From: Anaerolineae bacterium
Lineage (GTDB): Bacteria; Chloroflexota; Anaerolineae; CG2-30-64-16
Reading direction: 5' to 3'
Length of the DNA stretch: 64,000 bases
NCBI GenBank assembly: GCA_034432655.1
Contig: DAOUBP010000038.1
Coordinates: 660 to 64,659, forward strand
Part shown: positions 6,467-46,954 of the stretch, piece by piece
How the letters are laid out: the number at the start of each line of letters is the position of its first letter
Numbering within the stretch: position 1 is the first letter of the stretch
Position numbers and translations under genes: made by a program
The notes under the pieces: generated by a model
The model's input: the letters and a program-made list of their open reading frames with translations, nothing else
Told to the model about the DNA's origin: nothing
Databases searched by the model: none

Positions 6467-8506
6467 TCACGCCTCACGTCTCAACATCGCCAACAGCCCG
6501 CCCGCGTCCAAGATCGCCGCGACCGACGCGGAGAACGGCGGGAACGGGAATTCGCCGGCCGCGCAGGTCACAACGCCGCGGCCCAGGTCAATGCTGATGT
6601 GTGCACCGGGTTGGATAGCTGCAACCGCCTCGGGGCAGACGATGGGGAGGAGGCCGTTGTTGACAGCGTTTCGGAAGTAGATCCTTGCGAAGGACGCCGC
6701 AATGATAACCCGAATCCCCGCCGCGCGCAAACAGGTGACGGCCTGCTCACGACTGGAGCCGCAGCCGAAGTTGCGGCCGGCTACGATGATGTCGCCCGGT
6801 TGAACATTGGCCGCGAAGGTCGGGTCGAGGTCCTCCAGCGCGTGGCGGGCCATCTCGGCTTCTTCCTTGATGGTGTAGGTGTATTTGCCCGGGAAGATGA
6901 CGTCGGTGTTGACATCGTCGCCGTAGACCCAGGCGCGGCCGGAGAGGATGTTGGATGTTCGATGTTCGATGGACGATGGAGCGCGTTGCGTATTGCGTAT
7001 TGCGTACTTCGTATCTGGGGTAACCTTTTGTTCTGGAATCGAGGCTTTAGCCGGTTTCGTGGGCGAAGCAGTAGACCGGCTCACATCTCGATCCCAGTCG
7101 TCTTGATTCGGAATCGAGGCTTTAGCCGGTTTGGTGGATGAAGCATCTGACCGGCTAAGGCCTCGAGTCCAGTCGCGCAATTCCTCCATGTACGGGATCC
7201 GCCCCAGGGCCGCGCTGGCGGCGACGACCGCAGGGCTGGCCAGGTAGATCCGGGCGTCGGGGTTGCCCATGCGGCCGCGGAAGTTGCGGTTGGCGGTGCT
7301 GATGACGGTCTCGCCCGCGGCGGGGATGCCCAGGTGGTTGCCCATGCACGGGCCGCAGCCGGGCGTGCCGATCAGCGCGCCGGCTTCGAGGAAGGTCTGG
7401 ATGTAGCCCGCGGCCAGCGCATCCTGCAGCACCTGACTCGATGCCGGGACAACCAGCAACCGCGTGCCCGCGGCAACGCGGCGCACCCGTCCGTCCGGCC
7501 CGCGCAGTGCCGCGGCGGCCTCTGCCAGGTCCTCCAGCCGGCCGTTGGTGCAGGTGCCGATGAAGGCCTGGTGGACCGGGGTGCCCGCCACCTCGGACAG
7601 CGGCACGACGTTTGCGGGGTTGTGGGGCACGGCGACGACCGGCTCCAACGCGCTCAGGTCCACGGTATGACGGGCGATGTAGGGCGCGTCCGGGTCGGGG
7701 TAGAGCGCGAGCGCAGCAAGGTTCATAGGGACGACTTCAGTCGTCCCGCCGCGCTCGGAACGGCTGAAGCCGTTACGACGAACTGCCAACCGTTCCGCCA
7801 GCCACGCGAACACCGCCTCGTCCGGTTCCAGGTACGCGCTTTTCGCGCCCGATTCGGCCAGCAGGTTGGGGAGCACCATCCGGCTCTCGATGCTCAGCGC
7901 CCGCAGCCCCGGCCCGCCGATCTCGATGGCCCGGTAGATGCCCGCCTCGGGGCCGAGCAGCTTCAGCAGCCACAGGCCCAGGTCTTTGGCGGTGACTCCG
8001 GGCCGCAGGCTGCCGATCAGGTCCACGCGGATCGTCTCCGGCACGCGCAGCCAGAGCTCGCCGGTGGCCCACAGCGCGGCAACCTCGCTGCGGCCGATGC
8101 CCGCGCCGAACGCGCCCAGCCAGCCGAAGTGCGTGGTGTGGCTGTCTGCGCCCAGGATGAGCTGGCCGGGCAGCACCAGCGCCTCCTCGCTGAGCACCTG
8201 ATGGCAGATGCCCCGGCCGACGTCGAAGAAGTGCGTGATGCCCTGCTCGGCCACAAAGCGGCGCACCTCGGCGTGGTTCTGCGCGTGCTCGGCCGTGGGC
8301 GCGGGCACGGCGTGATCCAGGGTGATGGCCAGCCGCTCCGGGTAGCGCACCCGGTCGCGCCCCAGGCTGCGGAAGAGCCGGGCGATAGCTGCGGTGTTGT
8401 CGTGGCTCAGCACGATGTCGGGCCGGGCGTCCACGATCTGGCCGATGGCCGCGTGCGGCAGCCCCGCCGCGCGGGCCAGGGCTTTTTGGGCAAAAGTTTG
8501 TGACAT
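6467..8506 (-). CDS. homoaconitase / 3-isopropylmalate dehydratase large subunit and small subunit read as one ORF, joined in-frame by a ~80-aa repeat-derived linker
   Basis: N-part [15 protein letters not shown]...SHTTHFG...GTCTNGR...GCGPCMG (large subunit); C-part [19 protein letters not shown]...[11 protein letters not shown] (small subunit); no stop and no ATG/GTG/TTG start between them; linker DNA 6950-7200 = heptamers + two palindromic elements. The 40 codons upstream of ATG 8506 (to 8626) lie in a palindromic repeat and were excluded. Confidence 0.7.
6950..7034. repeat. tandem heptamers (ATGTTGG/ATGTTCG/ATGGACG... then GCGTATT/GCGTACT) inside leuC-leuD linker
   Basis: direct reading, period 7. 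Confidence 0.7.
7035..7169. repeat. two tandem copies of a ~60-bp palindromic MITE/REP-like element GGAATCGAGGCTTTAGCCGGT-N19-ACCGGCTAAGGCCTCGAGTCC (third copy at 62678-62738)
   Basis: 16-bp inverted arms; copy A right arm degenerate; lies in-frame inside the leuCD ORF. Confidence 0.7.
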
Positions 8507-9994: not shown

Positions 9995-11212
9995 TCAAGT
10001 AAGTGCAGTTTCGATCGCCTCTGCCACCCGCTCCAAATCCTCCTCCTCGATCACCAGCGGCGGGAGGAGGCGGAGGACGGTGGCGCCGGCGGGGAGGGCG
10101 AGGACGCCCAGGGCTTGCAGCCGCTGCAGGATGGGCGTGACTTTGACCTTCAGCTCGATGCCGATCAGCAGGCCCAGGCCACGCACCTCGCGGATGAGCG
10201 GCGAGTTGATGGCGCGCAGGCGGGCTTGCATGTGCTCGCCCAGCCGCGCGGCGCGTTGGGGGAGGATTTCGGTTGTAATCGTATCAATCGCCGCCAGCGC
10301 GGCCGCGCAGGCCAGCGGGTTGCCGCCGAAGGTGCTGCCGTGGGTCATGGGGCGAATGCCGGCGACACGCGGCCCGATCAGGCAGGCGCCCATCGGCAGG
10401 CCGCCAGCCATGGACTTGGCGACCGTCATCAGATCGGGAGCCAGGCCATAGTGCTCGCAGGCGAACAGCCGGCCCGTGCGACCGAAGCCGGTTTGGATCT
10501 CGTCCAGGATCAGCAGCGCGCCCCGCTCCCAGCAGACGCGCTGCGCCGTCTCCAGGAACCCGGGCGTCGCCGGGTGGACCCCGCCTTCGCCCTGCACGAC
10601 TTCCAGCAGCACCGCGGCCGTCTGGTCGGTCACCGCCCGTTCCAGCGCCGCACTGTCGTTGAACGGGATGTGGCTGAAGCCGGGCACCAGCGGCTCGAAG
10701 GGCTGGCGGTACTCGCGGTTCCACGTCGCCGACAGCGCGCCCAGAGTGCGACCGTGGAAGCCGCGCATGGCCGCCACGATCCCGCTGCGGCCGGTGCTCA
10801 GCCGGGCGAACTTGATGGCCGCCTCCACCGCCTCCGCACCGGAGTTGCACAGGAACGCGCGCTCCAGCCCGGCCGGCGCGATCGCGGTCAGGCGGGCCAG
10901 CAGCTCGGCGCGGCGGTCGTTGTAGAAGATCTCCGGGCAGGAGATGAGGGTGGCTGCCTGCCCGGCGATGGCCGCGACCACTGCCGGGTGCGCGTGGCCC
11001 AGGTTGGCCGCGCCCTGCCCGCCCACGCAGTCAATGTACTCCCGGCCCTCCGCGTCCCAGACCCGCGCGCCCTGTCCTCGCACGATCGCCAGCGGCCGCT
11101 TGGGGTAAACGCCGGAGGTGTGGCGCGATTCGAGGGAGAGGATGGTAGATTGGTAGGTTGGTAGATTGGTAGATTGGTAGGTTGGTGGGTGGATGGGACG
11201 AGTGTCAGTCAT
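9995..11212 (-). CDS. lysJ: class-III aminotransferase: [LysW]-aminoadipate semialdehyde / acetylornithine aminotransferase
   Basis: [45 protein letters not shown]; N-terminal ~30 aa ([22 protein letters not shown]) is encoded by the GGTAGRTT octamer array so the true start is uncertain. Confidence 0.8.
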
Positions 11213-11310
11213 GGGAGACCTCCCCCAATTCACCAAGTCCCAATCTACCAGTTCCTACTTTACCAACCCCCAATTTACCAACTTCCACTGTGCCAATCAC
11301 AGTCCCCTCC
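11140..11310. repeat. octamer array GGTAGATT/GGTAGGTT (11140-11195) and an inverted copy (11225-11310) spanning the lysZ stop / lysJ start junction
   Basis: direct reading; the two arrays are reverse complements and can pair. Confidence 0.65.
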
Positions 11311-12098: not shown

Positions 12099-12197
12099 GA
12101 GTGCTCCTGTTGCGTATTGCGTACTGCGTATTGCGTACTGCGTATCTTCTCCAGGCGGTACGCAGTACGAAGTACGAAGTACGAAGTACGGAGTATG
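12099..12197. repeat. inverted heptamer arrays (GCGTATTGCGTACTG... vs GTACGCAGTACGAAGTACG...) forming a long hairpin between lysY stop and lysZ start
   Basis: direct reading. Confidence 0.7.
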
Positions 12198-14907: not shown

Positions 14908-15003
14908 CGGGGGCGGATGGGAGTCGAACCCACCTTGGACGCTTCCTAGGCGCCCATCACCGGTTTTGAAGACCGGGGCCGCCACCGGACGACAACCACC
15001 CCC
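14908..15003 (-). tRNA. selC: tRNA-Sec (selenocysteine), anticodon UCA, 96 nt, 8/5 acceptor/T-stem architecture with long variable arm
   Basis: GGGGGTGG-TT-GTCGTCCGGTGGCGGC-C-CCGGT-CUUCAAA-ACCGG-[26-nt variable arm]-GTGGG-TTCGACT-CCCAT-CCGCCCCC-G; aligns block-for-block with E. coli selC (TCGTCTCCGGTG..., CTTCAAA, TTCGACTCC). Confidence 0.85.
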
Positions 15004-16939: not shown

Positions 16940-18061
16940 TCAAGCAATCGTGCGCGCGATTATCAACCGCTGCATCTCGCTCGTTCCCTCGCCGATGGTC
17001 ATCAGCCGGGCGTCGCGGTAGATGCGCTCCACCGGGTACTCGCTGCTGTAGCCGTAGCCGCCGTGGATCTGGATCGCGTCCCGGGCCACGCGTTCGGCCA
17101 TCTCGGTGGCCACCAGCTTGGCGATGGAGGCCTCTTTGGTGTGTGGTCGGCCCTGGTCGCGCAGCCACGCAGCATGATAGGTCAGCCAGCGCGCCGACTC
17201 GATCTCGGCCGCCATATCCGCCAGCATGAACGCGACCGCCTGGTGCTCGACCAGCGGCTGGCCGAAGGTGTGCCGCGTTTTGGCATAGGCGGCCGCAGCG
17301 TCAAACGCGGCCTCGGCCAACCCCAGGCTGAGCGCGGCGATGCCGATGCGGCCGCCGTCCAGCACCTGCAGGGTCTGCGCCAGGCCGCGGCCCTCGACCC
17401 CCAGCAGGTGATCGGCCGGCACGCGCACGTCCTCCAGGCTGACCGCGTAAGTGTGCGAACCGTGGAGCCCCATCTTCTTCTCCGGCGGGCCAAAGGTGAG
17501 GCCGGGCGCATCGGTGGGGACCAGGAAGTGGCTGAATTTGTCGCCCGTGCGGGCCAGCAGGATGGCGATCCCGGCCTCGGCGCCGTTAGTGAGCCACATC
17601 TTGCTGCCGTTGATGACCCAGTCGTCTCCATCTCGAACGGCGGTCGTGCGGATGCCCCGCAGGTCGGAGCCGGCACCCGGTTCGGTCAGCCCCAGGCAGC
17701 CGAGCATCTTCCCCTGGGCCAGCGGGACGAGCCAGCGCCGTTTCTGTGCCTCAGTGCCGAAGAGCGTCAGCGGCCCGCACGCCAGTCCCAGGTGGGCAGC
17801 TACGATCAGCCCGGTGGAGCCGCAGCCCTTGCCGATCTCCTCCAGCATCAGCGCAACGCTCAGGTAGTCAGCGCCGGAGCCGCCGTATTCCTCCGGCACG
17901 TTCAGGCCCAGCAGCCCCAGCTTGCCCATCGCCTTCAGCGTCGGCCACGGGAACTCGCCCGTCTCGTCTGTGTGCCGGGCGCGGGGGGTTACTTCTTTGG
18001 CCACGAACTCGCGGACGGTCTCCTGCAACATGCGGTGTTCTTCGGACAGGTCGAAGTCCAT
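16940..18061 (-). CDS. acyl-CoA dehydrogenase
   Basis: GLLGLNVPEEYGG, LTEPGAGSDL, IYEGTSEMQRLIIAR-like C-term (IGEGTSEMQRLIIARTI); start MDFDL with RBS ggagg; ORF-track N-term extension is heptamer-encoded. Confidence 0.85.
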   Translation of the reverse strand: MDFDLSEEHRMLQETVREFVAKEVTPRARHTDETGEFPWPTLKAMGKLGLLGLNVPEEYGGSGADYLSVALMLEEIGKGCGSTGLIVAAHLGLACGPLTLFGTEAQKRRWLVPLAQGKMLGCLGLTEPGAGSDLRGIRTTAVRDGDDWVINGSKMWLTNGAEAGIAILLARTGDKFSHFLVPTDAPGLTFGPPEKKMGLHGSHTYAVSLEDVRVPADHLLGVEGRGLAQTLQVLDGGRIGIAALSLGLAEAAFDAAAAYAKTRHTFGQPLVEHQAVAFMLADMAAEIESARWLTYHAAWLRDQGRPHTKEASIAKLVATEMAERVARDAIQIHGGYGYSSEYPVERIYRDARLMTIGEGTSEMQRLIIARTIA

Positions 18062-18258
18062 GAGAACCTCCGTACCTTTACTGAATACTGCGTATTGCGT
18101 ACTGCGTATTGCGTACTGCGTATTGCGTACTAAGTATTCCAAACTGCGTGCTGTTATGCAGCTTACCTCGCAACTGCGCCATACGGAGTACGGAGCACGG
18201 ACTACGAAGTACGGACTACGGAGTACGAAGTACGGACTACGGAGTACGCAATGCGTCG
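18062..18258. repeat. heptamer arrays in both orientations between acyl-CoA DH start and CoA-transferase B stop
   Basis: direct reading. Confidence 0.7.
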
Positions 18259-19338
18259 TTATCTGATGAGCAATCCCGTCGGATCAATTTCCCTCAAGAT
18301 CCTTCGTTCCTCCTCCGTCGGCGCGGCGGTGACGGCCAGCGGCTCGGCCACCGGGATCGGGAAGCTGCTGTTGGCCTGGATCTCCTCCACGGTGACGCCG
18401 GGGTGAACGGCCAATAGATACATGGTCCTGGTCGCTTCGTCGAAGCCGTAGACGCCCAGCTGCGTGATCACCCGATAGGGGCCGGTGTTCGCCGGCAGCC
18501 CTGCGCGCTCACGTGCGCCCGGACCGGTCAGATAGCCTGGGGTGGTGATAAAGTCCAGCTTCTCGGCGAACTTACGGCGGTCCTGGCGCATGATGATGAT
18601 GGTGCGATGGCAGGCCGAGCCTACGTCATTTGCCCCGCCGCTGCCGGGCAATCGGACCGTAGGGTGCTCCCAATCGCCGATCACGGTGGTGTTGATGTTG
18701 CCGTACGGGTCAATCTGCGCGGCGCCCAGGAAGCCGTAGTCCAGATGGCCGGCCTGGGCCATGGACATCACGTCGTGCATGCTCGAGGCGGCCACAGCCT
18801 GATGGAAGGTGCGCGAATCGCCCACGGAGATGGGCAGCACCGGGATGTGGGGGCCGATGCCGCCGGCTTCGAAGATAATCAACAGGCCCGGCGCGTGGGT
18901 GCGCTGCGCCAGCATGGCGGCGATCATAGGCAGCCCTGTGCCGACGAACACTGATTTACGGTCTTCCAGCAGGTGTGCCGCGACACAGGCGAGCAGCTCG
19001 GTGGAGGAATAAGGAGACGTGGAAGCAGGGAGACGCGAAGATTCTCCGCGTCCCCGCGTCTCCGCCTCCCCGTGTCCCCGCGTCCCCGCGTCCCCGCGTC
19101 CCCACGTCTCCGCCTCCCCGTGTCCCCGCGTCTCCGCGTCCCCGTGTCCCCGCGTCTCCGCGTCCCCGTGTCCCCGCGTCCCCGCGTCCCCGTGTCCCCG
19201 CGTCTTCGCGTCTCCGCGTCCCCGCATCCCCGCGTCCCCGTGTCCCCGCGTCTCCGCCTCCCCGCGTCCCCGCGTCTCCGCCTCCCCGCGTCCCCGCGTC
19301 TCCGCGTCCCCGCGCGCCTGCATCATCGGATCCTCCAT
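18259..19338 (-). CDS. CoA-transferase subunit B (glutaconate/3-oxoacid CoA-transferase beta-like) with ~80-aa N-terminal extension encoded by the TCCCCGCG octamer array
   Basis: VFVGTGLPMIAAMLAQRTHAPGLLIIFEAGG, AQIDPYGNINTTVIGD, GSGGANDVGS; no in-frame ATG/GTG/TTG between the repeat and the conserved domain. Confidence 0.7.
   Translation of the reverse strand: MEDPMMQARGDAETRGRGEAETRGRGEAETRGHGDAGMRGRGDAKTRGHGDAGTRGHGDAETRGHGDAETRGHGEAETWGRGDAGTRGHGEAETRGRGESSRLPASTSPYSSTELLACVAAHLLEDRKSVFVGTGLPMIAAMLAQRTHAPGLLIIFEAGGIGPHIPVLPISVGDSRTFHQAVAASSMHDVMSMAQAGHLDYGFLGAAQIDPYGNINTTVIGDWEHPTVRLPGSGGANDVGSACHRTIIIMRQDRRKFAEKLDFITTPGYLTGPGARERAGLPANTGPYRVITQLGVYGFDEATRTMYLLAVHPGVTVEEIQANSSFPIPVAEPLAVTAAPTEEERRILREIDPTGLLIR
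19016..19320. repeat. ~37 tandem octamers TC(C/T)CCG(C/T)G
   Basis: direct reading, period 8; translates as (R/G)GDAETRG in CoA-transferase B frame. Confidence 0.85.
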
Positions 19339-19700
19339 TGCTCAGAGTGGCTGATCATGTTCACCAGTTTGCCCAGCACGTTGTCGTATGCGGCCGATAT
19401 TTCATTGCCCACGGAGGGAGCCAGATAGCTACACTTGACGGAAAACTCCAGCCAGACCTGGGTTTCAGCAGCCTCTGCTTCGGAATCGCTGAGCTTGCTG
19501 CTGAAAGCGTTGGGATATCGTCGTTTCCGCCAGGCCTCAGCTATGTTTGCGCAGACGGACCGTGAGGATCGTCGAATCTGGTCAGTTAGCGAGTAACGTT
19601 CTTCCTTCGGGAAGTCTTTTGTCAACTCAAAGATCCGCATCGCCAGCTCCATCGCCAGCTTGTACACATCCAACTCACGAAAATCCCGAATATTGCTCAT
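19323..19700 (-). CDS. four-helix-bundle protein (TIGR02436 / 23S rRNA intervening-sequence protein family)
   Basis: MSNIRDFRELDVYKLAMELAMRIFELTKDFPKEERYSLTDQIRRSSRSVCANIAEAWRKR...; start with RBS ggaggg; ORF-track N-extension (to 19844) is octamer-encoded. Confidence 0.8.
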   Translation of the reverse strand: MSNIRDFRELDVYKLAMELAMRIFELTKDFPKEERYSLTDQIRRSSRSVCANIAEAWRKRRYPNAFSSKLSDSEAEAAETQVWLEFSVKCSYLAPSVGNEISAAYDNVLGKLVNMISHSEQWRIR

Positions 19701-19703
19701 ACT

Positions 19704-19912
19704 CCCTCCTCTCCGCGTCCCCGCGTCTCCGCGTCCCCGCGTCTCCGCGTCCCCGCGTCCCCGCGTCCCCGCGTCTCCGCGTCCCCGCGTCTCCGCGTCC
19801 CCGCGTCCCCGCGTCCCCGCGTCTCCGCGTCTCCGCGTCTCCACGTCCCCGCGTCTCCGCGTCTCCGCGTCCCCGCGTCCCCGTGTCTCCGCGTCTCCGC
19901 GTCTCCGCGTCT
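19704..19912. repeat. ~26 tandem octamers TC(C/T)CCGCG (same family and orientation as 19016-19320)
   Basis: direct reading. Confidence 0.85.
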
Positions 19913-19914
19913 CC

Positions 19915-20901
19915 TCACGCCCTGAGCGCCTCGACCTCTCGCAGATAATCCAGCCGTTCCCGACCTCCTATCTTCTCCAGGTATGCCTCGAAGTCGGGCA
20001 CCCCGAAGACGAACTCCTCGAAATACTCGGCTGCGCCTGCCGCAGTTTTTGAGCGCTGCATCCAGGAGCGAATATGGTCTTCGTCGAAGTAGTAAAGCCG
20101 TGGCATCTGACAGGGATGGCTGCCGAAGGGCACTTCCACCACTGCGTCCACCAGATGGTAAGGGATGACCGTGCGCCAGGGTGTTTCCCGGATCTGTGCT
20201 TCGGGGATGATCTGCTCGGTGGTGAGGATCAGACGGCGGGCCGCGCGCGCCAGCTCGAAGTCCTCGATGATGGTGCCGTCAATCTGCGCGTTGCCGTACA
20301 TATCGCACCGGGTCACGTGGATGAAAGCGACGTCGGGGTAACAGGCGGGCAGCAGGCAGATCGGCTTGCCGCTCCACGGATCGCGCACCACCTTGGCCGA
20401 GCTGTGGGCCAGGGTGTCGGTGCCCAGCAAGCTGCGGGTAGGGATGAAGGGCAGGCCCATGGCCGCGGCCAGGAAGCGCCACTGGTAACCGGCGTTGCTG
20501 GTCTCGGCCACCACGCGGCAGTGGCCCTCTTCCACCATGCGCCGCGAGGCAGGGGAGAGGCCGCGCAGCTCGTGTCCGAAGGTGTACGCCACCTCGACCC
20601 GATCCACGCAGCCGGACGCAATGAGGATGTCGCCGTCGTGCACGGCCGTCTTGCCGGCCAGTGTCAGATGACGCTTGCGCTGGCGGATGATCTCGTAGAT
20701 GACGGCCATGCTCACGCGCACATGGCCGAAGCCGCCGGAGGCGATCAAGGCACCGTCGGGCACAAAACGCGCCACCGCCTCGGCCACCGTCATGCGCTTG
20801 TCACGCAGGTCCCGGGATTTGTTCTTCAGCACCCATTCCCGGTTCTCATCCGGGTCGTGCCAGCCGATCAGCTCGCCGTGGCCTTCTTGCAAGAGCTCCA
20901 T
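19915..20901 (-). CDS. CoA-transferase subunit A (glutaconate CoA-transferase alpha-like)
   Basis: family-level similarity over whole length; strong RBS ggaggtg upstream of ATG 20901. Confidence 0.7.
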   Translation of the reverse strand: MELLQEGHGELIGWHDPDENREWVLKNKSRDLRDKRMTVAEAVARFVPDGALIASGGFGHVRVSMAVIYEIIRQRKRHLTLAGKTAVHDGDILIASGCVDRVEVAYTFGHELRGLSPASRRMVEEGHCRVVAETSNAGYQWRFLAAAMGLPFIPTRSLLGTDTLAHSSAKVVRDPWSGKPICLLPACYPDVAFIHVTRCDMYGNAQIDGTIIEDFELARAARRLILTTEQIIPEAQIRETPWRTVIPYHLVDAVVEVPFGSHPCQMPRLYYFDEDHIRSWMQRSKTAAGAAEYFEEFVFGVPDFEAYLEKIGGRERLDYLREVEALRA

Positions 20902-21031
20902 TGCTCACCTCCGGAGAGACTACGGCGTACTCCGTGTTCCGTGCTACGTACTACGTAGTGCTTCAACCATCGAGGGATCGCGATTCAAGGAATACGCAGT
21001 ACGCAGTACGCGACACGCAATACGCAATACG

Positions 21032-21664
21032 CTATACTTCCAGCCCCACCAACTCCGGTTCCCCCCACACGGCCCAGGCCCATTGGTGTTCGCCCAAGCC
21101 GTCGGTGGCGAAGGCCAGGCGCAGGATACTTCCGGCCTGGAAGGGCAACGCCACTTCGAACGGGTCCCAGGCCCGTGGGTAGGCGGCCCGACTCCACACC
21201 TGCCAGCCGTCCACTTTGATGCGAAAGGCGACCAGCTGCTCTGCGCCCTGCGCGCCATCGCGGATGCCGATGCTGAAACGCAGGCGCAGGTCTTGCAGGC
21301 CGGCCGGGACGGGCACGTGGAACTCGACCAGCGCCTCGCCGCTGACCGGGGGATGCTGCCAAAGCGCGGGCCGACGTTGACCGCCTACGCTGGCCTCGCC
21401 GATCTTAACTTCCATCCCTGCCGCGTCCTCGCGGCCGCCAGAACGGCTGGCCACAGCGCGCACGTCGGCCTCCGCAAAGTGTTCCAGGAAATTGAAGCAC
21501 CAGGGCCGGCCTGCTTTTGCGCCCTCTGCCGGGTTGCGGTGTCCGGCTCGCCAGCGCAGAAAAGCGATGTACTCGGCCACCCGCTCCTGATCTGGTGGCG
21601 AAAGGGTGGTAAGGTCACGCAGGATCGTTTCTAGGGGAGTCATCATGATGTCGTCACCGGCCAT
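21032..21664 (-). CDS. hypothetical protein
   Basis: ORF only; no recognisable motif. Confidence 0.4.
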   Translation of the reverse strand: MAGDDIMMTPLETILRDLTTLSPPDQERVAEYIAFLRWRAGHRNPAEGAKAGRPWCFNFLEHFAEADVRAVASRSGGREDAAGMEVKIGEASVGGQRRPALWQHPPVSGEALVEFHVPVPAGLQDLRLRFSIGIRDGAQGAEQLVAFRIKVDGWQVWSRAAYPRAWDPFEVALPFQAGSILRLAFATDGLGEHQWAWAVWGEPELVGLEV

Positions 21665-26331: not shown

Positions 26332-26931
26332 CTAGTCCTCCCGGCCGGGCAAAGGATCTTCACCTGGGTGCGGCGTCACTCCACTTTCATCCCGGCCGTC
26401 GGGGCTGGCCCCGGAACCCGGCTCCGCACCAGGGGGCGACATCTGCCCGCTTTCATCCAGGGCGTCGGGGCTTGCCCCAACCTCCTCGACCCCGGGGCTG
26501 GCCCCGGAACCCGGCTCCGCACCAGGGGGCGACATCCGCCCGCTTTCATTCAGGGCGTCAGGGCTTGCCCCAACCTCCTGGACCTCGCGGCTGGCCCCGG
26601 AACCCGGCTCCGCACCAGGGGGGGTCGTCAATTCGCGCATGACCGAATCGCGGATCGCCCGGCCGGGGTCGCGGGCGGCCATGGCCAGCGCGGTGGCATC
26701 TTTGGCAACTTCCTTGATCTCTTCCAGCGGGCGGCTGATCTCCTGGTCAGGGTCCAGCGCCTGGCGCGCCTTCTCCAGCTCGCGCGAGAACTCGCGCGTC
26801 GCTTTGCGCATCTGCCGCATGCTCCTGCCAAGCTTCGCGCCGATTTCCGGCAGCTTATCGGGGCCAAAAACGGCTAGCGCCAGGATCAGGATGATGATCA
26901 GTTCAAACGGCCCGATTCCGAGAATTTCCAC
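26332..26931 (-). CDS. tatA: Sec-independent translocase TatA/TatB with long acidic/Pro-rich repeat tail
   Basis: MEILGIGPFELIIILILALAVFGPDKLPEIGAKLGRSMRQMRKA. Confidence 0.85.
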   Translation of the reverse strand: MEILGIGPFELIIILILALAVFGPDKLPEIGAKLGRSMRQMRKATREFSRELEKARQALDPDQEISRPLEEIKEVAKDATALAMAARDPGRAIRDSVMRELTTPPGAEPGSGASREVQEVGASPDALNESGRMSPPGAEPGSGASPGVEEVGASPDALDESGQMSPPGAEPGSGASPDGRDESGVTPHPGEDPLPGRED

Positions 26932-40156: not shown

Positions 40157-41590
40157 TCACGGTGCAGGGACGACCGGCACGCTCAGGAGGTCTCCCTCCA
40201 GGCCGACTAACATCGCCGCCACCCAGCCGATCCTGCCATCCTGCGTGCAACACACTTGCCACCAGCCGCCCGTTGCGTTGCGGCCGACAACGGTCAGGAC
40301 CCGGCCGCTCTCCGCCACTTCCCACACCGGATAGTTCAGCCCTGGCCCGGCCCGGATGTTGACGCCCCGCTCCCCCACCCTGACAATGGGTGTCGGGGCC
40401 GGAGTGACGGTGGCCGTCACGGTGACCGTCGGCGTCGGGGTGGCGGTCGGCGTCGGGGTGGGCGTGGCCGTCGCTGTTGCGGTGGCCGTCGGCGTCGCAG
40501 TCGTGGTGGCCGTCGCTGTTGCGGTGGCCGTCGGCCCTGGGGTCGCAGTGACAACAACCAGGATAGTGGTCACCGGCCGGTTCAGCGCGTTGCGCAGCGC
40601 CAATGTCCCGCCGATGCACGCGGCCAACAGGCACAGGACCAACAGGCCACCGAGTGCCGCCACAATGCGCCGCTGGCCGGGGCTCAACCCCTTGTCCGGC
40701 GCGCTGGCCCGGTCCGGAGAGAGTGCCAGCAAAGCAGATAGATCGCGCTGCGCGTCTGCGAAACGGGTCGCGTCGCCGTCGAAGCGCACCAGCGCGGTGT
40801 GATAGCCATTTTCGATGGCGATGATGCGCTCGCGCATGGCCGCCCGGAAGCCCGGCGGCTCGATCCCATCCACCACGACCGCGAGATAGGCATGTCGGGT
40901 CGCTTCGATCAGGATGCGCCGGGTGCCGTACTGGATCTCGTCCAGCTGGCCCTCCTTGCCCCGACCGAAAGCGTCCTGGGCAAAATCGCGGATCGCGGTC
41001 AGCATGCCGCTGATCAGATCGGCCTGATCGGCAATTTCTGGTTCGTTGGAAAGGTGCAACAGCAGCAGGCCGGTCTCACGGTGGATCAGGAACAGCTCCG
41101 CCACCCGGAACGGCAGCGCCTCGCGCAGGGCCAATGCCTCATCCGGGATGCCGGCCAGCCGGCCCCGCAGCCGCCGCCAGACCGACTTCAGGTCCAGGGA
41201 GGTGCGCATCCGGGTGTCAATGGCCCGGGCCAGGTCGCGGATCGCCTCGGCGACCGCGCGGCCGATGAGCTGGCCGATGATCGGGTAGAGCGCCTCGATC
41301 ATCTCATCGCGGCCTTCCTGGATTTTGTGCCGGATGATGTCACCCATCAAGGGCGAAATGGCGGCCACCAGGCGCTGTGGGTCACCGGTGCGATGCTCCA
41401 GCTCGGTCACCCGCGCGGCGAGCTGGTCGGCGCGCGCGCGGTCCGGCGCCGCGAGAATGCGGCGTAACTCCTCCAGGGCCGGGTCAACTCCCTGGGCGTT
41501 CGCCACGGCCTCGCCCTGGCCAGGCAACAGCCCAGGCCCCATCGGCGCCCGCGATTCGGCGCAGTCCGCCGAGGCCGGTTGATCGTCCAT
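40157..41590 (-). CDS. membrane protein: cytoplasmic roadblock/LC7-like domain, one TM, Thr/Pro/Ala-rich linker, C-terminal SH3b domain
   Basis: LFLIHRETGLLLLHLS...RRILIEATRHAYLAVVVDG (roadblock-like strands); TM IVAALGGLLVLCLLAACIGGTLAL; (TA)n(TP)n linker; SH3b VRVGERGVNIRAGPGLNYPVWEV...GWWQV. Confidence 0.6.
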   Translation of the reverse strand: MDDQPASADCAESRAPMGPGLLPGQGEAVANAQGVDPALEELRRILAAPDRARADQLAARVTELEHRTGDPQRLVAAISPLMGDIIRHKIQEGRDEMIEALYPIIGQLIGRAVAEAIRDLARAIDTRMRTSLDLKSVWRRLRGRLAGIPDEALALREALPFRVAELFLIHRETGLLLLHLSNEPEIADQADLISGMLTAIRDFAQDAFGRGKEGQLDEIQYGTRRILIEATRHAYLAVVVDGIEPPGFRAAMRERIIAIENGYHTALVRFDGDATRFADAQRDLSALLALSPDRASAPDKGLSPGQRRIVAALGGLLVLCLLAACIGGTLALRNALNRPVTTILVVVTATPGPTATATATATTTATPTATATATATPTPTPTATPTPTVTVTATVTPAPTPIVRVGERGVNIRAGPGLNYPVWEVAESGRVLTVVGRNATGGWWQVCCTQDGRIGWVAAMLVGLEGDLLSVPVVPAP

Positions 41591-46127: not shown

Positions 46128-46954
46128 AACTCCTTCTCGCTGATGAACGCGCCGTGCCAGGTGTGATACCACACCTGCCCGGTGTAGGCGTTGACGCTGA
46201 GCATGCCGGCCGGCTTACCGTTCTGCAGGAAGTCCATGGTGTAGTAGCCGGGAAACTGCATCTCGTCGTCGGCCAGGGTGGCGCCGGGGAGGTTGGCGTC
46301 GAGCCACCCCTGTCCCGCGGCCCGCGCCTGCGCCACGGTGATGGCCGTGGGGCCGGCCGGACGATTCCACCAGCCCATCATGCCGCCGAAGCCGGCCATA
46401 TGGCCGTACTTCGTGTTCCACATCATGTTGGGGCCGGGCTCGGGGATCACGGAGCCGGTGTAGCGGTTGACCAGCAGCTCGAAGGCGCCCATGCCCGTGC
46501 TCTGCTCCTTGACCATGGCGTAGAAGTTGTTCTCGAACTCCATCACCTCGGCCAGGGTCAGGTCGCCGTTGCCATAGCGCTTCAGGTATTCCTGCACGGC
46601 TGCCGCGGCCTGATCGAGGGTGATCGGCTGGCCGCTTGCCTGGCCCGGCGCGGCGCCGAGCATCGGGCAGCCGGCCGACCAGGGGTCGGTGATGGGGTTG
46701 CCGAATCCCATCATGCCGCCGGGGCCATAGCTGCCCATCATGCTGCCGGGGCCATAGTTGCCCATCATGCCAGGGCCATAGTTGCCCATCATGCCGGGGC
46801 CATAGTTGCCCATCATGCCGGGGCCATAGCCCTGGCGGCCCCAGCCGCCCCACGCGCCGCCCGGCCCTTGGGCGAAGGCAGTCGCCGCGAAGACAGCCAT
46901 CAGCAACAGGACGGCCAATCCCAGGCCGACCACGAGTCTGGTACGCTTGTTCAT
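46124..46954 (-). CDS. secreted Met/Gly-rich repeat protein (signal peptide; 6x YGPGMMGN; PepSY-like C-terminal half)
   Basis: MNKRTRLVVGLGLAVLLLMAVFAATAFA signal; Met-rich repeats suggest Cu(I) binding; RBS aggag. Confidence 0.6.
   Translation of the reverse strand: MNKRTRLVVGLGLAVLLLMAVFAATAFAQGPGGAWGGWGRQGYGPGMMGNYGPGMMGNYGPGMMGNYGPGSMMGSYGPGGMMGFGNPITDPWSAGCPMLGAAPGQASGQPITLDQAAAAVQEYLKRYGNGDLTLAEVMEFENNFYAMVKEQSTGMGAFELLVNRYTGSVIPEPGPNMMWNTKYGHMAGFGGMMGWWNRPAGPTAITVAQARAAGQGWLDANLPGATLADDEMQFPGYYTMDFLQNGKPAGMLSVNAYTGQVWYHTWHGAFISEKEF

Follow-up and report, generated by a model that had tools for sequence, protein, structure and literature searches.

The closest described system to the element treated here is the intervening sequence (IVS) in the 23S rRNA gene of Coxiella burnetii. 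It is a 428-nt element that carries an open reading frame (ORF) of the S23p family in its loop; the inverted repeats at its two ends pair as a 28-bp stem within which RNase III cuts, and two or three tandem GACAGAT heptamers, their number depending on the strain, are located directly 5' of the ORF (PMC4990558). IVS with an S23p ORF have been described in C. burnetii and in Leptospira (PMC4990558; Ralph & McClelland 1993 as cited there). In this study we investigated a gene of the same family, encoding a small four-helix-bundle protein (the bundle gene), in a 64-kb stretch of DNA from an Anaerolineae bacterium (contig DAOUBP010000038.1; the whole stretch is called the window and all positions are given in its numbering). 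The gene lies between the genes for subunits A and B of a CoA-transferase and is flanked by arrays of tandem octamers. We concluded that the 904 bp from 19012 to 19915 probably represent an IVS-type S23p cassette of a widespread kind, which here resides in the spacer of an operon. Such a cassette would consist of a PF05635 ORF with its own Shine-Dalgarno (SD) sequence, enclosed by complementary arms of tandem 7-8-nt purine-rich units.

The cassette shares with the 23S rRNA IVS the protein family encoded in the loop, terminal inverted repeats able to enclose the ORF, purine-rich tandem 7-8-mers of variable copy number just 5' of the ORF, and a patchy distribution with horizontal spread. Decay of the ORF is seen in both, as the AuQ01 deletion in the Coxiella IVS and in a close relative of the window (locus L223) in the cassette. 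The location is different, since the 23S rRNA IVS sits in helix 25 or 45 whereas the cassette occupies the spacer of a protein-coding operon; no rRNA match was found anywhere in the window with Rfam, and both neighbours of the cassette are PF01144 genes. The arms of the cassette comprise 26 and 34 units compared with 2-3 in the Coxiella IVS, and the stem in the window is weaker than the 28-bp stem of Coxiella. Unlike the rRNA IVS, the cassette has a highly conserved ORF with a strong SD, and one of its arrays is apparently coding for the downstream gene. RNase III cleavage has been shown for the Coxiella IVS, whereas for the cassette we infer it by analogy.

Short G-rich tandem repeats have been described from several other bacteria. 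G-rich heptamers, some of them as convergent pairs, were found in Xanthomonas (GGGAATC) and Nostoc (GGGGAYT) (PMC4692102), and paired octanucleotide sites in Geobacter (PMC2700814). Together with the short tandemly repeated repetitive (STRR) sequences of cyanobacteria, these repeats resemble the arrays of the window in having 7-8-nt G-rich tandem units in spacers, frequent convergent pairs, length differences between strains and G-quadruplex potential. The reports on STRR-type repeats, however, describe gene-less repeats with no tie to PF05635, whereas the arms in the window enclose a conserved ORF. A further system to compare is that of the repetitive extragenic palindromes (REPs), their paired form REPIN and the REP-associated tyrosine transposases (RAYTs), where a gene flanked by repeats that are also dispersed without it was the hallmark that first linked RAYTs to REPs. 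Like these, the cassette combines hairpin-forming repeats, dispersed in operon spacers, with a gene that has such repeats on both sides. A RAYT, however, is an HUH transposase and usually single-copy, whereas the bundle protein is multi-copy and without known catalytic activity, and REPs are fixed palindromes whereas the repeats of the cassette are tandem arrays. To our knowledge the S23p/IVS protein family has been without known function for thirty years, we know of no catalytic motif in PF05635, and the heptamers and octamers repeated between genes in cyanobacteria, Xanthomonas, Geobacter and other bacteria are, as far as we know, no better understood. None of the papers covered by a literature search connects PF05635 genes with tandem arrays in their flanks. 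The mechanism that we infer for the association between gene and arrays is set out below.

Part of the evidence for this conclusion comes from other copies of the gene. A genome scan yielded at least 412 relatives of the bundle protein with 59-75% identity, and 80 loci were fetched. The hosts belonged to Chloroflexota, Cyanobacteria, Acidobacteriota, Planctomycetota, Ignavibacteria, Cloacimonadota, Nitrospirota, Desulfobacterota, Gemmatimonadota and other groups (at least nine phyla). Usually a purine-rich 7-8-mer array was located 40-130 nt upstream of the gene and its reverse complement 10-100 nt downstream, with upstream/downstream unit pairs such as GACGCGGG/CCGCGTCT, GGCAGGG/CCCCCTG, TGAAGGGG/TTCACCCC, GACAAGGT/TTGTCACC and GAAACGGG/TTCCCCGA. 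Complementary 7-mers common to the upstream 150 nt and the downstream 300 nt were then counted. At least three were present in 61 of 64 loci, and the median was 13 for these 64 loci versus 4 for 246 other genes of the same loci (Mann-Whitney p = 5e-21). The units of the two arms also co-varied: when the upstream unit was compared with the complement of the downstream one, mismatches averaged 1.2 within a locus and 2.46 between loci (p = 3e-8). Flank energies calculated with RNAduplex discriminated poorly, because long G/C-rich sequences always yield low energies, and were replaced by these two tests.

In 27 of 62 loci the order was G-rich array, gene, C-rich array (G-gene-C), and in 5 it was G-gene-GC, the type of the window; one arm only was detected in 16, and no array passing the thresholds of Tandem Repeats Finder (TRF) in 11. 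A C-rich arm upstream of the bundle gene was found in none of the 62. Both neighbouring genes were co-directional with the bundle gene at 35 of 55 loci. The G-gene-G-C layout recurred at L038, L040, L047, L049, L058 and L235. Two finished plasmids of cultured cyanobacteria confirmed the architecture, pNPUN02 of Nostoc punctiforme PCC 73102 with locus tag NPUN_RS36250 and a plasmid of Oscillatoria nigro-viridis PCC 7112 with locus tag OSC7112_RS32210; the Oscillatoria plasmid has the G-gene-G-C layout of the window. In five samples (L005-L009) a 74%-identical bundle gene lies between histidine-kinase genes, a context unrelated to that of the window. It has GGGGACAC/GGAGACGC arrays and their complements on each side, the only such repeats within 10 kb, and between the samples one arm differed by 24 and 32 nt while all else was identical. 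An earlier reading of the letters of the window (the original prediction) had raised the question whether gene and arrays travel together; they do so at L005-L009 and at most of the 64 loci, in many phyla.

In the window itself all genes of the cassette region are on the minus strand, and the coding order is A, array, bundle, array, C arm, B (Table 1). Both arrays consist of GGRGACRC units on the coding strand and have the same orientation on either side of the bundle gene, so that two same-strand octamer arrays around a TIGR02436 gene, as originally predicted, were confirmed by TRF and by a TIGR02436 match of 98.9 bits against a cutoff of 24. The upstream (right) array gave a period of 8 with 25.6 copies (score 312), in agreement with the predicted ~26 octamers, and a higher-order period of 16 (score 348). 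For the downstream (left) array the period was 8 with 33.6 copies (score 384) and the higher-order period 48, that is 16 codons (score 429). About 37 octamers had been predicted here over 19016-19320; the array is real, but it has about 34 units, and 19016-19045 is in the opposite orientation and forms part of the complementary arm. Counts over the whole window gave 34 occurrences of the word TCCCCGCG and 18 of TCTCCGCG, far beyond chance, with only 8 of the 52 outside the two arrays, and no further GGRGACRC array was found in the 64 kb besides the two that touch the gene. The longest identical run between the two G arrays in direct orientation was up to 32 bases, and three canonical G-quadruplex motifs were detected on the sense strand of the downstream array. 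A CRISPR array was rejected, as the units are head to tail with a period of 8 and no spacers. No Rfam family matched the arrays; sub-threshold matches to miRNA precursors fell on the terminal hairpin.

The C-rich arm (19012-19041) can be aligned with both G arrays in many registers, with a complementarity of 72-80%. In an inverted-repeat search its best partner was the outermost end of the right array (30 nt, 80% complementary, 844 nt between the arms), and we therefore took the 904 bp to be a unit bounded by inverted arms. Together with the last G units the C arm folds locally into a hairpin of -55.5 kcal/mol (z = -3.65), and it merges directly into the conserved SPYSSTELL N-terminus of subunit B. 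At the other end, the stop codon of subunit A abuts the first octamer of the upstream array; a 96%-identical NCBI protein carries the name CoA transferase subunit A [Anaerolineae bacterium]. A fold of the whole cassette RNA (z = -4.6) was rejected as proof of an enclosing stem, as CGCG self-pairing within the arrays dominates it. In a promoter and terminator scan of 18000-21200 one promoter-like and four terminator-like sites were detected, none of them on the coding strand.

Table 1. Features of the cassette and its neighbours in the window, with the evidence for each.
Feature	Position	Strand	Evidence
CoA-transferase subunit A, 328 aa	19915..20901	-	PF01144, E 3e-36
Outer end of upstream array	19886..19915	.	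Terminal inverted arm; best complement of 19012-19041 arm
Upstream G-rich array, GGAGACGC/GGGGACGC units on coding strand	19710..19914	-	TRF, unit census
Four-helix-bundle gene, 125 aa, S23p / 23S_rRNA_IVP family	19323..19700	-	PF05635, TIGR02436
Putative coupled start of subunit B: SD + ATGATG	19321..19336	-	Sequence context
Downstream G-rich array, GGGGACGC and variants	19046..19314	-	TRF, ORF 18259-19338, frame analysis, G-quadruplex scan
Short C-rich inverted arm, ~4 units, GCGTCTCC CTGCTTCC ACGTCTCC on coding strand	19012..19045	-	Inverted repeats I1-I11
Conserved body of CoA-transferase subunit B	18259..19011	-	PF01144, E 6e-33

The bundle protein matched PF05635 over residues 9-113 (E 7.6e-31, 106.9 bits versus a cutoff of 33.8), and a database protein (P0001) is 100% identical to it. 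A phmmer search of the PDB gave 2gsc_A (XCC0516; E 7.3e-12) and 2rld_A (E 5e-8), relatives recognised by sequence. XCC0516 is a homopentamer of four-helix bundles (PMC4990558). The family is large, with 11,356 cluster representatives (50% identity, E <= 1e-3), but only one bundle gene is present in the window. Its ATG at 19700 is preceded 6 nt upstream by the SD GGAGG at the end of the upstream array. The right array had been read as the in-frame upstream region of the bundle protein; it is not part of the protein, as the homologues begin at the position of ATG 19700 and are 125 aa long, and the frame is open across the array because T is scarce on that strand. Many family entries, among them P0010, P0033 and P0036, have 140-190 aa in databases; here gene callers have placed the start too far upstream, within the G-rich array, which has no stop codons.

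A weak similarity was detected to Avd of the diversity-generating retroelements (DGRs), a distantly related small four-helix bundle of the same fold family (PF22296, E 9e-6; NF033474, E 6e-6). A DGR was nevertheless rejected, since the NF033474 match reached 26.5 bits against a cutoff of 80 and no reverse transcriptase was found among the flanking genes scanned within ~3 kb. The neighbours within 3 kb are genes for an acyl-CoA dehydrogenase, subunits A and B of the CoA-transferase, an OB-fold protein and a hypothetical protein.

The history of the insert was followed at the same A-B site in relatives. The bundle proteins nearest to that of the window (84-90% identity) are encoded in the same A-bundle-B context; those of L001, L003 and L004 are 84-88% identical, and their loci have GGGGACGC arrays of differing copy numbers. 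L001 has 9.6 units upstream and 33 units downstream followed by 17 complementary units, while in L003 and L004 the arrays are short and degenerate with fewer upstream units. In L223 and L224, where subunit A is 91% identical to that of the window, a remnant is left: of the bundle gene the 3' half is retained, with two units upstream of it, ~14 units downstream and the C arm. A plain A-B spacer of 40-120 nt is present in L231, L232 and L233 (85-86%) and in the more distant L225, L228 and L229, which upheld the claim that the cassette splits normally adjacent genes. A neighbour-joining tree of A+B gave the groups ((L223, window), L001) and ((L231, L233), (L003, L004)), with the ingroup recovered in 193 of 200 bootstraps (97%) and cassette carriers in both sub-clades. 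The simplest history is one insertion at the base of the clade, vertical descent, one loss and one partial deletion; vertical descent follows from a divergence of the bundle proteins that is similar to that of the host genes. Recent mobility at this site is not supported by these loci or by the tree, and the insert is ancient and vertically inherited. In L231 the sequence CCGATGAAGAGGGGGA is similar to the bundle stop plus the first unit of L004 and might be a deletion scar, but it is too short to rely on. A second small insert was noticed in the same operon, a nucleotidyltransferase/HEPN pair (PF01909 and PF05168) that is wedged between the OB-fold and NAD-binding genes in L003 (355-675), L004 (1589-2309) and L233 (448-1183) and is lacking in the window.

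In cassette-free relatives an ATG belonging to subunit B itself is present, a few residues ahead of YS(S/P)TELLACV. No ATG, GTG or TTG was found near the conserved N-terminus of B in the window, L001 or L223. In the window GGAGGA (19331-19336) is followed by ATGATG, and the first ATG (19324-19326) overlaps the bundle stop codon TGA (19323-19325). The resulting CGATGA junction is common to the window, L001 and L223, and the frame of its ATG continues into B across 315, 426 and 144 nt respectively. Ahead of this ATG, GGAGGA is found in the window and L001 within the final codons of the bundle gene, and GGAGGATCC in L223. L004 differs in that B keeps its own ATG, and in L003 a GTG lies inside the C arm. 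The frame from ATG 19326 thus runs through the array of 8-nt units into B at three loci, with array lengths taken from the assemblies. Read in the frame of B, the downstream array gives (R/H)GDA(E/G)TRG repeats and a predicted N-terminal tail of ~105 aa; its higher-order period of 48 nt compares with 16 nt in the untranslated right array. The lack of stop codons says little, because the strand is almost T-free, but since the array is in frame in 3 of 3 lineages and no alternative start is present, translation of the array is favoured. Judged from these features, subunit B appears to be translated from the bundle-overlapping ATG through the left array, which supports the original prediction of an open left array in frame with B. 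Arrays longer than the reads may be mis-sized in metagenome assemblies, and this weakens the in-frame argument. As in contingency loci, a repeat unit that is not a multiple of three is located inside an apparent frame, and unit-wise slippage is seen at a homologous cassette. Contingency loci, however, serve surface or restriction functions, whereas B is a housekeeping catabolic enzyme.

The following course of events belongs to the favoured explanation of a resident IVS-type cassette. The comparisons show that the cassette entered the 40-120-nt A-B spacer in an ancestor of a small Anaerolineae clade and was then inherited vertically, being truncated in one sister lineage and absent from another, with arm lengths changing by slippage of whole units. 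In the window the G arms have expanded to 26 and 34 units while only a 30-nt C arm is retained. The cassette is presumably transcribed within the operon, and its arms could pair in the RNA in any register, because both are repeats. By analogy to the rRNA IVS, RNase III might act on the stem, or the stem might at least serve as structural punctuation, and if it were processed or recognised in this way the cassette could sit harmlessly in any transcription unit. This model of pairing and RNase III action is drawn from the IVS precedent and from the covariation of the arms. In the sub-clade of the window the insertion would have removed the start codon of B, which would now be coupled to the bundle ORF via GGAGGA and the overlapping ATG; this dependence would lock the 3' end of the cassette in place.

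Several observations weigh against this explanation, and some of them also support the view that the arrays are generic intergenic filler, that nearly every operon spacer in this lineage is a hairpin of tandem 7-8-mers, and that the gene is simply flanked by two spacers, unrelated to the arrays. The arms may have been in the genome beforehand and not belong to the element, because arrays of the same octamers mostly occur without the gene. In a metagenome set of 120 loci with at least five perfect GGRGACRC units, 112 had octamer arrays without a bundle gene, as had 13 of 13 viral contigs, and the neighbouring genes were ordinary. The locus L143, from the same metagenome assembly as L001, has GGGGACRC arrays and some of the other repeat families of the window, and no bundle gene is present in the fetched locus. 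Spacers of the window between 4 and 23 kb likewise contain gene-less heptamer or octamer arrays, several of them as inverted pairs that form hairpins. In addition, the C arm of the window has just 30 nt of 72-80% complementarity, the predicted minimum-free-energy structure pairs it locally and not around the ORF, and with CGCG self-pairing within the arrays an enclosing stem in the window is putative. The original prediction had tied the arrays to the gene and had named arrays found genome-wide without it as a refutation. In the window both GGRGACRC arrays touch the gene, but outside the window most such arrays, that of L143 included, occur without it, which counts against the prediction. Against mere filler, the ~15 other spacers of the window use different units, the octamers at L005 are confined to the surroundings of the gene within 10 kb, G/C-rich arrays are ~8 times commoner beside bundle genes than in the remaining spacers of those loci, and the flanks of other genes are far less complementary to each other. 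A GGRGA-type unit moreover accompanies the gene across phyla and GC contents, and the Coxiella IVS has heptamers too. We consider generic filler unlikely, though it is the main rival reading, in which the gene would be an occasional occupant of spacer hairpins that were already there. A bundle gene strongly predicts arrays, whereas arrays only weakly predict a bundle gene; by our estimate the enrichment is 5-10-fold in either direction.

A second view, close to the original prediction, is that of an active DNA mobile element with the direct arrays as terminal repeats, for instance one excised as a circle by recombination between arrays and re-inserted into other arrays. The 32 identical bases shared between the direct arrays and the recurrent layout of G array, gene, G array and C array would suit it, gene-less G-then-C hairpins are the expected product of an array-array deletion and possible landing pads, and 60-75% identity of the protein across phyla implies horizontal spread. 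No target-site duplication was visible, however, when filled and empty sites were compared, no recombinase or transposase and no second copy are present in the 64 kb, and on these grounds a DNA transposon or miniature inverted-repeat transposable element (MITE) was rejected. In four lineages the locus is also orthologous and has diverged as far as the genes of its host, no direct repeat at all is present in the most frequent layout (27 of 62 loci), and the partial loss in L223 is not an array-to-array deletion. Of the predicted mobile cassette with direct terminal repeats, the joint travel of gene and arrays therefore stands, whereas the general architecture is inverted; we regard an active element as very unlikely, with recombination between direct G arrays a possible route to gene-less hairpins and to movement. 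Protein and repeats might instead be a functional pair, in which a pentameric bundle, encoded next to its substrate, would bind or act on G-array RNA, single-stranded DNA or G-quadruplexes by analogy to RAYT-REP/REPIN or to Avd with DGR RNA. This would agree with a gene flanked by repeats that are also dispersed without it, with the weak similarity to Avd, with a GGRGA core that is kept despite variable 3' bases of the units, and with the bundle-family ORFs in 8 of the 120 array-ascertained loci, some of which are not adjacent to the ascertained array (~6 of the 8 are within 400 nt of an array). It agrees poorly with units that differ within one genome (GAGAAGAG versus GGTGAGGG in L068) beside proteins ~65% identical to the query, and with a family that has no known catalytic motif, and we consider it distinctly unlikely. 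Assembly artefacts, in which the arrays were created or inflated by the assembler, are scarcely conceivable: the arrays of 205 and 270 nt exceed a typical short read and their exact copy numbers are uncertain, but the same architecture is found in independent NCBI, ENA, JGI and Logan assemblies and in finished cyanobacterial plasmids.

Going beyond the resident cassette, we advance tentatively, as a rather doubtful extension, that bundle genes and G-then-C hairpins are two forms of one self-propagating system in at least nine phyla, with gene-carrying masters and far commoner gene-less hairpins resembling RAYTs and REPINs. Spread might occur via array recombination or via RNA released by RNase III, with the protein acting on the repeats, and an array in the frame of B might serve as an on/off switch operated by slippage.

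The favoured explanation of an IVS-type cassette ties two puzzles together, the function of the S23p/IVS family and the intergenic heptamer and octamer repeats of cyanobacteria, Xanthomonas and Geobacter, because complementary repeat arms enclose most of the 64 loci, the units are copy-specific but co-vary, and the layout is IVS-like. Both puzzles become testable in cultured strains. PF05635 genes have also been found wedged inside cas operons (PMC3936711), and the published association of 23S_rRNA_IVP with CRISPR/cas loci may reflect operon-wedging cassettes of this kind. A practical consequence is that gene callers extend ORFs into the arrays, and that one array is apparently the N-terminus of a metabolic enzyme.

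The arrays without the gene have features of their own. Among 58 arrays with enough flank a complementary C arm was located within 200 nt downstream in 26 and upstream in 2. The gene-less hairpins L103-L222 almost always have the G arm before the C arm, a polarity that is identical from either strand. In a Pfam scan of 90 ORFs beside gene-less arrays ordinary genes were found and no family was enriched. On a 391-kb metagenome contig (L131, 3100-3560) GGAGACAC/GGGGACAC arrays and complementary arms flank tRNA genes. In the window nearly every spacer of the lysine (LysW/AAA-type) biosynthesis and acyl-CoA clusters between 4900 and 22600 contains tandem arrays, with heptamers of the GTACGCA, GTACTCC and GACGAAG families and the octamers TTGGTAGA and GCGAATCA; inverted pairs are formed for example by 18091-18152 and 18194-18255 and by 12113-12144 and 12159-12190. 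They become rare past ~23 kb. The junction between an amino-acid kinase and an aminotransferase gene (11139-11287) is spanned by octamers in an inverted pair, TTGGTAGA/TCTACCAA. The arms of this pair are apparently inside the C- and N-terminal coding ends and may be a second case of arrays in reading frames.

Other features of the window were recorded as well. A selenocysteine tRNA gene at 14909-15003 on the minus strand (RF01852, 71.9 bits) was the only Rfam match in the window. A palindromic element of ~75 nt with a MITE-like look (GGAATCGAGGCTTTAGCCGGTTT...AAACCGGCTAAAGCCTCGATTCC) is present twice in tandem at 7035-7175 and was also found in L233 (3490-3560 and 4380-4640), including its cassette-free A-B spacer. 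A 93-nt unit is repeated 2.4 times with 95% identity at 26400-26622. Finally, a 24-nt unit is repeated 4.5 times at 46718-46829, and GTCGGC-type repeats of 18/42 nt are located at 40392-40535; both are probably coding.

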